From Eledone cirrhosa (Eukaryota): 64,000 bases of DNA. The DNA is taken from positions 48,918,001-48,982,000 of the forward strand of contig OZ024746.1 of assembly GCA_964016885.1 (NCBI GenBank), given 5' to 3'. The position numbers and the translations under genes are program-made. Positions 26,667 to 56,190 of this stretch are shown here, one piece after another. The notes under the pieces are model-generated. The model was given only the letters and a program-made list of their open reading frames with translations. It ran no database searches and had not been told where the DNA came from. Numbering within the stretch: the stretch's first letter is position 1; each line of letters starts with the position of its first letter.

Positions 26667-26856
26667 CGAAGGAAGTGTGCTAAGAAAGTAGGTGGACCAT
26701 AACGCACCAGAGCACTCGATACATACGGTAGTAGAGTGGGTAATAGGAAAAGAGTCAGGATCCTGACAGCTGAGCTACGACCGTTTCAACAGCTAGATCT
26801 GAAGTTCAGATCTAGCTGTCGAAACGGCCGGAACTCAGCCGTCGGTGTTCTTTCCT
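26667..26856 (-). mobile_element. Short PLE pLTR fold-back fragment related to the 60.5-64 kb family
   Basis: Palindrome at about 26757-26850 centred on GATCTGAAGTTCAGATC; GAAAC-ggtc-GTA HHR half; tail homologous to 55408-55486 and 62600-62690; (TA)n flanks. Confidence 0.7.
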
Positions 26857-26874
26857 ATATATATATATATATAT

Positions 26875-27468
26875 ATAAATTAATAAAAACAATGAAATAA
26901 AAGCAAAGAACAAGTTCCTTATATTAAAAAATTCATCATTTTACGATCGTTTCTGGGATGTATGTGTGTGTTGGTATGTATATCATATAGATCTATGTAA
27001 AAATATTACAAATTATCAGAGTAAATATGCATAACTTCACATATACATGCCGTCCTCTGAGGACGGCATGTACATGTGAAGGTATGTATATGTAAAAATA
27101 TTACAAATTATCAGAGGAAATATTCATACCTTCACATATACATGCCGTCCTCTGAGGACGGCATGTATATGTGAAGGTATGTATATTTCCTCTGATAATT
27201 TGTAATATTTTTATATAGATCTATATGATATACATACCAACACACATATATATCCCAGAAACGATCGTAAAATGATGAATTTTTTAATATAAGGAATTTG
27301 TTCTTTGTTTTTATTTCATTGTTTTTATTAATTTATCATGACTTTATTTTCCTATGATTTTTATCGAAAATCTTTGAATGCTTCTTCTCTTTTCATGATA
27401 TTTGGATTACATTGAGTTCTTCATACGGATTGGACACTACCGTATATTTTGGTAGATTTATCTTCACA
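26875..27468 (+). mobile_element. Fold-back element (arms about 26875-27060 and 27145-27335) with HHR and 3' tail
   Basis: Inverted arms; CTGAGGA at 27152 ... GAAAC-gatc-GTA at 27258-27269; flanked by (TA)n. Confidence 0.75.
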
Positions 27469-27532
27469 TATATATATATATAAAGAATGAATAATAACAG
27501 GTAGATATCATAAAAAGGTAATTTATTCTGTG

Positions 27533-27644
27533 TGCTTACAAATGTTTCCACGGTGCTTATACAGACTATTTATGCTATGTGCAAATTTATAACTATTTGC
27601 AAAACTCAATTATCAAATGCTGTGACCACTGTATCATCAGAGCA
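27533..27644 (-). ncRNA. Hammerhead ribozyme motif with extended helix II
   Basis: Minus strand: TGCT-CTGATGA-tacagtgg...caccgtg-GAAA-C-attt-G-TA-AGCA; the mirror copy at 27786-27897 has GAAA changed to GACA. Confidence 0.65.
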
Positions 27645-27949
27645 GAATGGTTAAAAAGTAAAATGTCATTTTACATTTTAACCATTCTGCTCTGATGATA
27701 CAGTGGTCTGATGATACAAATATTATTTTACATTTTAACCATTCTGCTCTGATGATACAAATGTCATTTTACATTTTAACCATTCTGCTCTGATGATACA
27801 GTGGCCACAGCATTTGATAATTGAGTTTTGCAAATAGTTATAAATTTGCACATAGCATAACTAGGCTGTATAACCACCGTGGACACATTTGTAAGCACAC
27901 AGAATAAATTACCTTTTTATGATGTCTACCTGTTATTATTCATTCTTTA

Positions 27950-28133
27950 AGGCGGTGAATTGGCAGCATCGGTAGAAAGTCGGACGCCATGCTTTCCAGT
28001 ATAGATACGTCTCTTTACGGTCTGAGTTCAAATCCCGCCGAGGTTAACTTTGCCTTTCATCCTTACGGGTCGATAAAATAAAGTACTAGTAATGTACTGG
28101 GTAATTGCTGGCCTTGTGCCAAAAGTAGAAACA
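27950..28133 (+). mobile_element. Full-length MetaSINE-like tRNA-derived SINE with 15-bp TSD
   Basis: A-box TGGCAGCATCGG, B-box GAGTTCAAATC; TSD ATTATTCATTCTTTA at 27935-27949 and 28134-28148. Confidence 0.88.
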
Positions 28134-28827
28134 ATTATTCATTCTTTATCTACACTCCGGAATACAGAAGGATCAGGAACTGAGTTTCTTCAACTATTCT
28201 TCCATAACTCGTTGAGTAACCTCTCACTGTACGTCAACTCTATCCAGTGTAGTAATTAACCATTATTGCATCCAGGATAATCCTATATATATATATATAT
28301 ATATATATAGTAATAATAATAAATGCGAAGACTAAAATGATATATATATATATAGTAATAATAATAAATGTGGAGACTAAAATCCAAAGAGGGCTCGATA
28401 AGGATAAATAAATATCAAATATATAAGAACCCTAGAGCAAATATTTGCTTAAACTTTAATCTGTTATTATAATATATATATATATATATTGTTATACTTG
28501 GGGAGGGTCATATTGTAATAATATTGCCAGAAATAATAACAGAACTCACTCACTGTTTGGTTGGTTTTCGCTTCTGTATCTTTTATATCTCCACAGTTAA
28601 TTCATTTGGTCCAACGGTCAAAAATACAGCTATATATTTGTATATATATATATAATAGTAGAAGACTGGTGGGTTATGTCTGCTGTAGTAGAGCACTCAG
28701 TGCATGGGACAAGTTTGGTAGAAGTAGTTCCACAACAGTTAGTTCACCATACCGAGAACAAATATTAGGATCCGAATAAGGTGAAACATTTGTTCTCGGT
28801 ATGGTGAACTAACTGTTGTGGCACTAC

Positions 28828-29070
28828 TTCTCTCTCTCTCTCTCGCTCTCTCTCTCTCTCTCTCTCTCTCTCTCTCTCTCTCTCTCTCTCTCACTCTCTA
28901 TATATATGTTTGTATGTGTATGTGTGTGCGTGTGCGTGTGTGTATGTGTGTGTGTGCGTGTGTGTGTGTGTGTGTGTGTGTGTGTGTGTGTGTGTGTGTG
29001 TGTGTGTGTGTGTGTGTGTGTGTGTGTGTGTGTGTGTGTGTCTGTGTATGTGTATGTGTGTGTATGTGTT
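28828..29070. repeat. (CT)n and (TG)n microsatellites
   Basis: Direct reading. Confidence 0.95.
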
Positions 29071-29727
29071 TATTTTTACATATATAGATATATGTATGTA
29101 CATATATACATATATGTGAGTGGGTGGGATTTCTTATATATAGTTTTCTGACTGTCGTTACATAAACCTTCAATGGCTTTCCATGCTGCTAGCTTTCCTT
29201 TTATTTTCACCATTCTCTTATCGCTGTCGTTTTCACTATCACATATTACATTTCCATTATTCTTCACCATCATAATAATTTTCCCCATTTTCAATACCTT
29301 AACACCGGTTAACATTGGATTTTATGTTCCCCAATCGACTGATTCTGCCCGTAACCTCAAACTCGTCTTCTTTATAACGGTGATAAAGGTATTCCCTTAT
29401 TCAAACTATACATATATACAAACACACACGTCAACAAACACACTCACACATATATATAGACATGTGTATATACAAACATATATACATACACATATATATA
29501 CACATACATATATATATGCATATATATAATTATGTATATGTATATATATATATGCATATATATATATGTATATATACATATATATATATGTATATATATA
29601 TATACTTATATATGTATATATATATGTATATATATATATATATATATGTATATATATATGTATATATACACATATATATACATATATATGAAATATAGGA
29701 ATCAAAGAACTGTTCAAAACATTATTG

Positions 29728-54192: not shown

Positions 54193-54348
54193 AGAGAGAG
54201 AGAGAGAGAAAGATGAGAGAGGGAGAGAGAGAGAAAGATGAGAGAGGGAGAGAGAGAGAAATATGAGAGAGGGAGAGAGAGAGAAAGATGAGAGAGGGAG
54301 AGAGAGAGAAAGATAATGACAGAGAGAGAGAGAGAGAGAGAGAGAGAA
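54193..54348. repeat. (GA)-rich repeat with a higher-order unit of about 24 bp
   Basis: AAAGATGAGAGAGGGAGAGAGAGA repeated. Confidence 0.9.
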
Positions 54349-54787
54349 GCGAGGGGCAATTTTGAATTCGTATGACTTAAGTTATGTATCAAGGAAATCC
54401 AAGAAAAGTAGTAAATGAATTTATTACATTTCTAAATAGAATCAGCCTTGAGATTGCTAATATTTAACACAGATACCGATGCGATTATGAAATTTTAGAA
54501 ATACGTTTTATATCAGATCTTCAGTTATACATGTATCGCATTAGCCATTTATGAATGGACGTCTAGTTGAATAAATAGTCTTTAAATAATTTAATAAATA
54601 AGGCTAAATTAATGTTCGTTGTTCTTTTTTGCGGTATTAGTAAGTAATTAAAATAAATCTTTTGATTGATGGCAATAAAATTTAGAAGCCACAAACTTTT
54701 AAGTAATTCTGTCATGTATAGAACTAAAGTCTTAAAAGATAAACAATAGCATTTAATATTAGACAAGGACTATATAATGAGTCTATA

Positions 54788-54950
54788 TACATACATACAT
54801 GGTGGCTGCCAACTCGTTTTCGAGTACGGCCACTACTTTGTATCCATGTAGGAGAACCCCTACCGATGCGCTGAACGAGTGTGACTTTTTAGTCCAGCCA
54901 GCGACTTGAAAACTCTGGTACAAACACTACACTTGTGACAATTATTGACA
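54788..54950 (-). mobile_element. 5'-truncated 3' end of the RTE-like element
   Basis: Reverse complement of about 23295-23460 including the (TATG)n tail. Confidence 0.75.
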
Positions 54951-54954
54951 CATG

Positions 54955-55135
54955 CCTTGCTCATACAGGAACTGATTTGGCTTGATTTCTACAGCTGGAT
55001 GCCCTTCCTAACACCAACCTCATTTACAGTGAGTGCTGGATGCTTTTTCGTGGCGCCTACATGTCCACTTTACAGTGTGGGCTGGGTGCTTTTTTGCAGT
55101 GGCACCTCCACGACCACTTTGCAGTGGGAGGGTGT
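54955..55135 (-). mobile_element. SINE fragment
   Basis: CTACAGCTGGATGCCCTTCCTAACACCAACC, a motif common in invertebrate SINE bodies. Confidence 0.45.
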
Positions 55136-55282
55136 GGGGGCATATTGTCTATAAGCTTCAGCTTGTACCCATGGGAGGTATATATATTTATGTATATGTA
55201 TAAATATATATATATATGTATAAAATATATATATATATATATATATATATATATATGTATATATATATATAGATATATATAT

Positions 55283-55487
55283 ATAGGAACGAGTAGGACC
55301 CCGACGGCTGAGCTCAAGCCGTTTCGACGGCTAATTCTGGCTAATAGATTCCAGAATTAGCCGTCGAAACGGCTTGAGCTCAGCCGTCGGGGTCCTACTC
55401 GTTCCTATTACCCACTCTACTACCCTAAGTATTGAGTACTTTGGTGCGTTATGGTCCACTTGGTTCCTTACCACATTTCCTTCGTTA
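55283..55487 (+). mobile_element. Short palindromic pLTR fragment (55283-55408) plus tail, same family as the 60.5-64 kb PLE
   Basis: Arms of about 55 bp; sequence matches 62555-62690; (TA)n flanks. Confidence 0.8.
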
Positions 55488-55997
55488 TATATATATATAT
55501 ATATATATTACATATCTGTTACAGAAACATATGTCAATACCTAATAAATTCCTTTATAAAACCACTTTCATTTTATATTCATCTTTTATATATATATATA
55601 TATATATATATATATATATATATATATATATATATATATATATATATATATATATATATATATATATATATATATATATATATATATATATGTGTATATA
55701 TATATATATATATTATTATCATTATTATTTGTGGTATATAAATGTTGAGATTTGATGAAATAAATCACTACCAATACTGGAATTGAAATATCAAGACCGT
55801 AGAGGTATGTCATATATCAAATAATATATTTTATCTGTCGAGGACATACTGGAAAAAAAAACAACACAGTACCTTCGAAATATATATAATAAAGCATATA
55901 TTTTGATTATGTGAATATCTTCATTTGTTAATATTTTGAAGAATATATATATATATATATATATATATATATATATATATATATATATATATATATA

Positions 55998-56190
55998 ATA
56001 TATAAGATCAAAAGATGGTTAATGAGTTCCATGTATTTTATTATGCGCATTTCAACCATCAACGATTCAACTCATTTAACCATCTTTTGATCTTATATAT
56101 TATGTATACTCCAGTCCTACAAACTGTAGAGTGCTTCTTATCCGATATCTGCATTGCTTTATTGTACTACAATAAAACTCACCTCCTACA
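55998..56190 (+). mobile_element. Truncated second copy of the 45216-45625 fold-back element
   Basis: Same outer arms and tail, centre missing. Confidence 0.75.

Follow-up and report, generated by a model that had tools for sequence, protein, structure and literature searches.

A 64-kb window on contig OZ024746.1 of the 3.0-Gb assembly of an animal, Eledone cirrhosa, contains a series of short palindromic elements without an open reading frame (ORF), here called fold-backs; (TA)n content is very high. Each fold-back is probably a one-off, 5′-truncated insertion of a Penelope-like element (PLE) of the Hydra clade, and the two sites at which reverse transcriptase (RT) started copying its RNA were likely set by tandem bulged stem-loops. 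As a class, the fold-backs almost certainly belong to the known PLE insertions with an inverted copy and a tail, represented here by Hydra-clade families with unusually long tails. What appears to be new is the paired bulged stem-loop that marks both insertion ends; the fold-back class itself was known before. Publications are cited from those parts of them that were consulted.

A fold-back scan together with self-BLAST identified fold-backs at 26.7, 26.9, 27.5, 44.7, 45.2, 55.3 and 56.0 kb; all lack an ORF, abut (TA)n with one arm and possess a unique tail. An earlier note on this DNA had listed at least eight palindromes from several unrelated families, sharing a plan of (TA)n at one arm and a unique tail of about 80–140 nt. 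The plan was found at these seven loci and seven of the eight places hold, but the ‘42.8 kb palindrome’ consists of two family B insertions that share one (TA)n run with their tails facing. The end of the larger copy at 42.8 kb pairs with a partner arm at 37.6 kb (134/134), and the true arms of the second copy are 140/141 identical, as against 125/141 for the pseudo-arms of the supposed palindrome and 76/91 for the two tails. Six families are present: A (26.7, 55.3), B (42.8/44.3), C (26.9), D (27.5), E (44.7) and F (45.2, 56.0). The copies at 26.7 and 55.3 kb (77% identity) belong to one family, as do those at 45.2 and 56.0 kb. Tails measured on parent copies are 80 nt in A, 87 in B, 92 in F, 99 in E, 132 in C and 137 in D.

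Each family has two fixed ends. Family A copies stop at the equivalent of window position 62610 (short end) or 62690 (long end), and each end is followed by a copy of a motif with the form RCUC, inner stem, UN bulge, GAGY. The 11 insertion-end sites in the six families lie 2–6 nt before the stem, so that the tail of 80–137 nt equals the spacing of the two motifs. In family A, the distance to the motif is 5 nt for 109 of 124 short ends and 3 nt for 105 of 106 long ends. Ends are equally base-precise elsewhere (E short, 11/11; D short, 15/15; D long, 9/10). One long and one short end occur together in 145 of the 166 arm pairs from the six families. The other 21 comprise 12 with an arm continuing past the long end towards the ORF, seven with an unclassified end, one long+long pair and one short+short pair, the latter being the 27.5-kb copy with its split tail. 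The long+short combination was also found in 27 of 32 bycatch pairs. Most loci behind the 166-pair count were fetched using tail-bearing queries. In a further sample of 40 loci, picked by centre pattern only (20 for their recurrent centres), 37 of the 41 copies were short+long, one was short+short and three were unclear. Both sets (37/41; 145/166) show the single-sided tail expected of insertions by PLEs with an endonuclease (EN+). The tails of 80–137 nt in the six families, and medians that range from 31 to 271 over 19 clusters, do not match the 30–40 bp given for PLEs, a value that is typical rather than diagnostic. The family of a cluster with 60-nt tails (L042:3473–4440) has no motif after the short end but one after the long end; one of its copies extends for about 110 nt more before it ends, a hint of a third start site.

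Raw reads of three other samples contain TA-repeat loose ends at the equivalents of 62610 and 62690 (about 3,000 and 8,400–11,900 reads each), as well as strand-switch joints. Read depth was left out of this analysis because many ends of restriction-site-associated DNA reads fall on AATT sites, which presumably are restriction cuts. Assembly is known to produce artefactual palindromes in TA-rich DNA. The arms, however, differ from each other, the ends are fixed by family, one copy is split by a later insert and the reads of the three other samples contain both TA ends and strand-switch joints, so that we regard assembly fold-back as having a negligible chance of explaining the elements.

The motif was evaluated in 19 multi-copy families. 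Sixteen of them have NCTC within 21 nt of the tail start, compared with 4.5 after shuffling (maximum 11 in 5000 shuffles); at other offsets it occurs in 2–5 of 15–19 families. It closes on a downstream GAG, the outer pair being A-U in 12, G-C in 11 and U-A in one of 29 instances. At least three inner pairs combined with a 2-nt 3′ bulge are found in 18 of the 29 instances versus 1.5 in shuffled sequence (maximum 8); other 3′ bulge sizes give only 0–2. In two instances the second GAG was chosen by hand, while the shuffle comparison used an automatic choice and likewise gave 18; the nine long-end instances were selected manually, from parents showing continuation. The bulge mostly reads UU, UA or UC, and the spacer between the half-sites ranges from 9 to 108 nt. 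The parent of cluster 4 lacks a clear long-end copy and that of the B parent is degenerate. In a random sample of the genome (see below), the motif stands at the tail start in 21 of 41 elements and in none on the reverse strand. Searched for without further context, it is a loose descriptor, with 18 hits in the window versus 6.9 after shuffling. Isolated instances often fold as drawn. Family C (L170, L232) has a leader in which an AT-rich loop of 108 nt, perhaps an intron, is enclosed by the second stem-loop and immediately precedes the ATG.

By eye, GCTC, inner stem, TN and GAGCACT could be recognized at the 3′ ends of the published consensus sequences of Hydra-2_Amil (coral) and Hydra-2_Ajap (sea cucumber). 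The same pattern appears twice in the leader of Hydra-1_Ajap and partially in the other three of the six consensus sequences consulted. No report of such a motif came up in the literature searched, which covered neither subscription papers on Penelope nor most figures in supplements; these may bear on it. From position and covariation, the motif probably signals to the RT where to start copying.

A different role is conceivable for the motif within abortive PLE insertions: it could act at the DNA level or in EN-mediated resolution, the tail then being cut rather than set by RT. RCTC/GAGY is an inverted repeat in DNA too, the tail has been suggested to result from EN-mediated resolution (PMC8557442), and Penelope EN is cited as needing a tail for recognition (PMC11167929). 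A half-site spacer of 9–108 nt with a covarying inner stem and a one-sided bulge is more readily reconciled with a single-stranded fold than with a site in duplex DNA, however, and the in vitro RT starts of the element PAc match its tail ends (PMC11167929). We therefore consider a DNA-level role unlikely.

The fold centres are specific to the copy, and even the best matches differ in their centres. The exact 55.3-kb centre occurs once in 3.0 Gb and the exact 45.2-kb centre twice. A gapped pattern retrieved 8,741 family A minis, compared with 32,539 exact arm matches. The junctions overlap by 0–1 nt or hold a few extra bases. A 5′-truncated inverted copy beside a sense copy, variable from copy to copy, is what is described for EN+ PLEs. 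The earlier note had offered two readings, stereotyped abortive PLE insertions or a non-autonomous, hairpin ‘retrozyme-like’ class, and had proposed to ask whether the fold-back centre is shared as an amplified unit. The 8,741 minis all fold within one short stretch, and three centres recur five times each among the first 50 listed, as a class copied as a unit would have it. Among the same 50, though, 35 centres are distinct. Copies that share a centre diverge by 5.8% (29 pairs) versus 4.6% for others (674 pairs), span different subfamilies and face both orientations relative to the tail. Because they are no more alike than others, are of mixed subfamily and point both ways, recurrent centres represent independent events. 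In addition, mini subfamilies have ORF-linked parents, only 13 of 41 randomly sampled elements contain a complete ribozyme, and the tandem units by which retrozymes are defined are absent. Same-centre copies form no clade and nothing moves as a unit; the retrozyme-like class is highly improbable. The reading as abortive PLE insertions gains support from PLE parents for all six families and by a plan that fits the published signature of inverted copy plus tail.

No strong claim can be made for centres driven by microhomology, the overlaps being mostly 0–1 nt; five 5-nt cases come from self-folded context, and one comparison used incomplete parent contexts. The fold centres at 27025–27213 and 27624–27804 are nested and doubled, suggesting repeated template switching during joining.

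The two arms of a copy resemble each other more than they resemble other copies, differing by 0.7–2.8% within and by 2.2–11.4% between copies. Frequent non-CpG variants are found 118 times in both arms and 36 times in one arm only. Eight copies have at least two discordant sites; most of these look like effects of alignment edges or indels, and one (L185) may have two sources. In 16 pairs it is the short, tailless arm that extends further 5′ by at least 15 nt, in 11 pairs the long, tailed arm; 68 are even (95 informative pairs) and 50 lie at the reference edge. Since each arm reaches further in some pairs, neither can have been copied from the other throughout. Both arms likely derive from one RNA as two separate cDNAs, in keeping with the two-strand extension reported for PAc; gene conversion between arms may contribute to their identity. 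Alternatively, a single cDNA might snap back, copy itself and stop short of the tail. Shared variants and the roughly equal reach in 68 of 95 informative pairs would suit such a process. It would leave the 16 pairs in which the tailless arm reaches further than the tailed one without explanation, and the short end is base-precise with a motif of its own. Snap-back is accordingly quite improbable.

We propose that the element's enzyme would prime both ends of a cut in (TA)n and copy one RNA from two fixed starts. The protein, probably as a dimer, would bind the two stem-loops. Each cDNA would start at the UA just 5′ of a stem-loop, with 2–5 nt pairing to the TA primer, and the two cDNAs would be joined head to head with an overlap of 0–1 nt or a few extra bases. 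The spacing of the motifs would then give the tail length. Most family A cDNAs would stop at a common point upstream (the wall), probably the RNA 5′ end reached by run-off in the leader, or else a pause at the inner hairpin of hammerhead stem II. If the motif pair of a capped leader is used, both cDNAs might extend to the end of the RNA and terminate there, as retroviral strong-stop DNA does, and their joining would give a palindrome. It is possible, as a more tentative generalization, that Hydra-clade PLEs throughout animals dock a two-headed RT on tandem stem-loops, each head 2–6 nt upstream and priming one (TA)n end.

The wall lies about 60 nt upstream of the short site, and family A arms from both start sites stop there. 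The distribution of reach has its peak on, or adjacent to, the A of TCAGT/TTAGT at 62550, inside hammerhead stem II; 46 of 122 short arms have a reach of 4–5 and five a reach of 6. Among 47 further arms, 31 stop at the wall or fold, and 16 continue into upstream parent sequence. TCAGT/TTAGT resembles an initiator (Inr) consensus. Penelope has an internal promoter with Inr and downstream promoter element (PMC2377424). Run-off at the RNA 5′ end is the slightly favoured explanation of the wall; pausing at the inner hairpin of stem II comes second, as a possibility with a lesser chance. Folding at the ribozyme cut site was also considered for family A and rejected: the short end is separated by 20 nt from the cut and by about 60 nt from the wall. 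Arms shorter than 30 nt would have escaped detection.

Several observations weigh against start sites set by paired stem-loops. The large A copy in the window has a long end on both outer sides, and the long+long pair in the 166-pair set and the short+short copy in the centre-picked set do not conform either. The use of tail-bearing queries weakens the pair count. The motif is missing from the tail start in three of 19 families and in 20 of 41 random elements; these could belong to other clades or be decayed. RNAfold often prefers folds without the 4-bp outer stem once the sequence context is lengthened, and some GCUC versions prefer an unbulged register. The families are related, so covariation counts do not represent independent events. 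Finally, an extra G at the wall, a possible cap copy that would speak for run-off, was present in 14 of 16 cases in a first count, but a stricter count gave 7/13 versus 11/33, which is not significant (p = 0.31).

PLE ORF parents were found for all six window families. That of family A lies within the window, and that of family B is represented by L227 and by the window itself. The parent pseudo long terminal repeat (pLTR) of family E enters the ORF in L080/L306 and L300, and the family C parent enters a PLE ORF in L170/L232; parents are L294/L298 and L152/L158 for family D and L100 for family F. A genome search for family A gave 10,894 candidates, of which 150 were scored; dozens have stop-free frames of about 784 codons. 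Tandem copies of this family have a period of about 3.53 kb. An intact natural ORF of 717 aa (L287:4456–6606) contains RWR, DKT, CNCxxxxxC, CNLC and CKH, and RW is invariant across seven family N-termini. The features listed for the Hydra clade in section 11 of PMC8557442 (RWK, DKT, the CxCX5C linker, CxxC and CxH) are present in this ORF, and CCHH is absent. A (TA)n target and a hammerhead in the pLTR are present as well; the length given as generally under 3 kb is exceeded by the family A period. Pfam searches with this ORF and three homologues and a PDB profile search returned nothing relevant. A homologue search returned 2049 proteins, mostly unnamed, of about 700 aa and about 40% identity. 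Judged from these motifs, with reference Hydra proteins compared by eye from the supplement, the window families are probably Hydra-clade PLEs. The supplement of PMC8557442 also lists Hydra-1_Obim, an octopus Hydra element with a (TA)n target.

Hydra-clade EN+ PLEs as described in PMC8557442 thus share with the present families the protein motifs, the lack of CCHH, the (TA)n target, pLTR hammerheads and the 5′-truncated inverted copy with tail. They differ in tail length (30–40 bp quoted there, 80–137 nt here), unit length (under 3 kb versus about 3.5 kb) and the very high copy numbers found here; the paired bulged stem-loop is not mentioned in the sections consulted. The origin of inverted copies and tails in PLEs, the closest relatives of telomerase, is described there as unresolved. 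The Poseidon element PAc of Anolis cuts AT-rich DNA in vitro, extends both strands and uses two internal RT starts whose separation is the tail length; sequence 3′ of the starts is needed, and the hammerhead is dispensable (PMC11167929). Two-strand extension and the tail as distance between two starts would be common to PAc and our elements. PAc, however, belongs to another clade, its binding element was mapped to a 172-nt stretch, and its start lies in an AC-rich stem-loop without homology to the target (PMC11167929), whereas the ends described here overlap TA by 2–5 nt and precede a defined motif. That work found two start sites with the RNA signal left undefined in the parts consulted; a covarying motif at a fixed distance from both ends makes the question testable.

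Opposite-strand hammerhead pairs 100–700 bp apart have been attributed to truncated PLEs, with a U3-A8 variant and low activity in vitro (PMC4209133). The palindromic short helix III of these minimal, dimer-type hammerheads, the U3-A8 variant and the opposite-strand pairs recur here; in contrast to them, some of our families have a stem/loop II of 55–105 nt and several lack G10.1-C11.1. Non-LTR retrozymes consist of head-to-tail tandem units with a type I hammerhead in each (10.64898/2026.07.22.740005). They resemble the fold-backs in being small, ORF-less, hammerhead-bearing and PLE-derived, but the fold-backs are head-to-head, one-off and mostly without a whole ribozyme; tandem units with a complete type I hammerhead were not found among them. 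As an analogy only, the proposed docking may be likened to an RNA anchor in which the start would lie 2–6 nt outside the stem and the primer would be target DNA. Hepadnavirus epsilon and telomerase RNA anchors are bulged stem-loops that position an RT, epsilon templating protein priming from its bulge.

A relaxed descriptor of type I hammerheads gave 13 hits in the window versus 0.35 (maximum 2) in 60 local shuffles, and the core is kept across unrelated families, as in putative type I, dimer-type hammerheads with a conserved core and covarying stems I and II. The earlier note's statement that most elements carry the core on each arm has to be corrected: core and stem I are complete on both arms in three of eight elements (44.7, 45.2, 42.8/44.3). 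At 27.5 kb, one arm only has a hammerhead, the left being complete (27533–27644, minus strand) and the right having GACA for GAAA, and neither arm has a complete core at 26.7, 26.9, 55.3 and 56.0 kb. The U3-A8 core of the family A parent falls outside the relaxed descriptor and family A minis keep its 3′ half only. Of the 13 random-sample elements with a complete core, eight have it on both strands. Among the 150 of 176 Rfam matches listed there was no hammerhead family; those listed were sub-threshold, of microRNA type only, and none reached the gathering score. The D hammerhead has an 83-nt stem/loop II. More generally, hammerheads of families D and C (27533–27644; L133/L055) have a stem/loop II of 83–105 nt without a G10.1-C11.1 pair, beyond common descriptors.

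In either direction, the antisense arm would be transcribed first. Predicted fold-back hairpins reach −250 to −295 kcal/mol with 10 of 10 core bases paired, and about 30 kcal/mol would be needed to free the core. Hammerheads inside a read-through fold-back are therefore predicted to be inactive, locked in duplex, and may be regarded as passengers of the pLTR.

The abundance of fold-backs was estimated from 10-kb stretches, 70 in all, that begin at round coordinates of contigs C1–C9, the small contigs being omitted. These contain 41 fold-backs with one end at (TA)n and a tail of 25–300 nt, or 59 per Mb; two rows represent one locus with TA at both ends. They form about 20 clusters with family-fixed tails, and 23 link to a PLE ORF within the loci retrieved. 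Arms have a median of 80 nt (range 30–1130 nt), and 2.5% of the 700 kb is covered. By extrapolation, the genome would hold on the order of 10^5 copies. Minis at this density are a large potential source of perfect double-stranded RNA, which annotators could misfile as miniature inverted-repeat transposable elements or microRNA hairpins. Should the proposed mechanism be right, one portable signal of 20–25 nt would explain the tail, the inversion and the need for tandem copies in PLEs, and about 10^5 perfect hairpins of the genome would have arisen from Hydra-clade elements.

Table 1. PLE insertions and associated RNA features in the 64-kb window.
Feature	Position	Strand	Remarks
Family A′ mini fold-back	26669–26856	−	Tail on left, ~80 nt; stem-loop motif 26714–26737; arms decayed (40/55); hammerhead reduced to GAAAC..GUC half
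Family C fold-back	26875–27467	+	Doubled centre at 27058 and 27153; tail ~132 nt; fold at hammerhead core, so that 5′ strand of stem I is missing
Family D fold-back	27482–28284	+	Tail 28149–28284, motif 28154–28217; tail split off by insert 27949–28134 with 15-bp target duplication
Large family B PLE copy	37582–42773	+	5.2 kb; inverted arm 37582–39734; tail 42684–42773; sense arm includes RT/EN ORF part 39925–41229; hammerheads 37622–37687 (−), 42578–42643 (+)
Second family B copy	42796–44430	−	Tail 42796–42886; arms 42887–43027 and 44288–44428; hammerheads 42932–42997 (−), 44318–44383 (+)
Family E fold-back	44703–45134	+	158-bp arms; tail ~97 nt, motif 45044–45083; hammerheads 44754–44808 (−), 44934–44988 (+)
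Family F fold-back	45216–45621	+	154-bp arms; tail ~90 nt, motif 45543–45567; hammerheads 45251–45321 (−), 45430–45500 (+)
Family A mini fold-back	55286–55487	+	58-bp arms; 79-nt tail, motif 55414–55437; folded inside hammerhead stem II, 3′ half only
Family F mini fold-back	55997–56188	+	Unequal short arms, 53 and 26 nt; tail motif 56108–56132; no complete hammerhead
Parent-type family A PLE copy	60524–64000	+	Inverted arm 60524–61473; pLTR 61735–62780; frameshifted ORF from 62781; extends ~2.3 kb past window end
Family A U3-A8 hammerhead	62502–62595	+	UUGANAA ... GAAAC ... GUC; cleavage predicted after 62590; U, G or C at position 7, depending on subfamily; three-stem minimum free energy fold
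Bulged stem-loop copy 1, family A parent	62616–62639	+	ACUC..UU GAGU, 5 nt after short end 62610
Bulged stem-loop copy 2, family A parent	62694–62715	+	GCUC..UA GAGC, 3 nt after long end 62690

The window contains a PLE ORF at 24563–25582 with Pfam matches to RVT_1 and GIY-YIG; Pfam misses three further PLE ORFs at 31153–32826, 38927–41229 and from 62781 onward. More PLE fold-back or pLTR pieces of other families are located at 28655–28831, 57824–58076, 58354–58567, 45700–45968, 34231–34491, 29691–33200 and 24065–25730. Hammerheads among these pieces lie at 57936–57978, 45813–45872 and 34263–34322, and the PLE copy at 29.7–33.2 kb has a stem-loop motif after 33010.

The second family B copy is interrupted, between A and T, by a 1.15-kb non-coding insert (43031–44183, minus strand), which begins with (T)CTAT, ends with CTAG, has a GC hairpin before its end and contains internal 37-nt tandem repeats. 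From these features it is presumably Helitron-like. A repeat of about 190 nt resembling a short interspersed element is present at 27949–28134, 38057–38244, 56322–56509, 4100–4249 and 1214–1364; the first of these interrupts the family D copy precisely between arm and tail. Several RT ORFs of non-LTR retrotransposons lie at 5122–15474, a region with a 4.2-kb direct duplication (7183–11346 and 11962–16132, 96%). Other RT/zf-RVT fragments are found at 16.6–18.4 and 46.3–52.2 kb.

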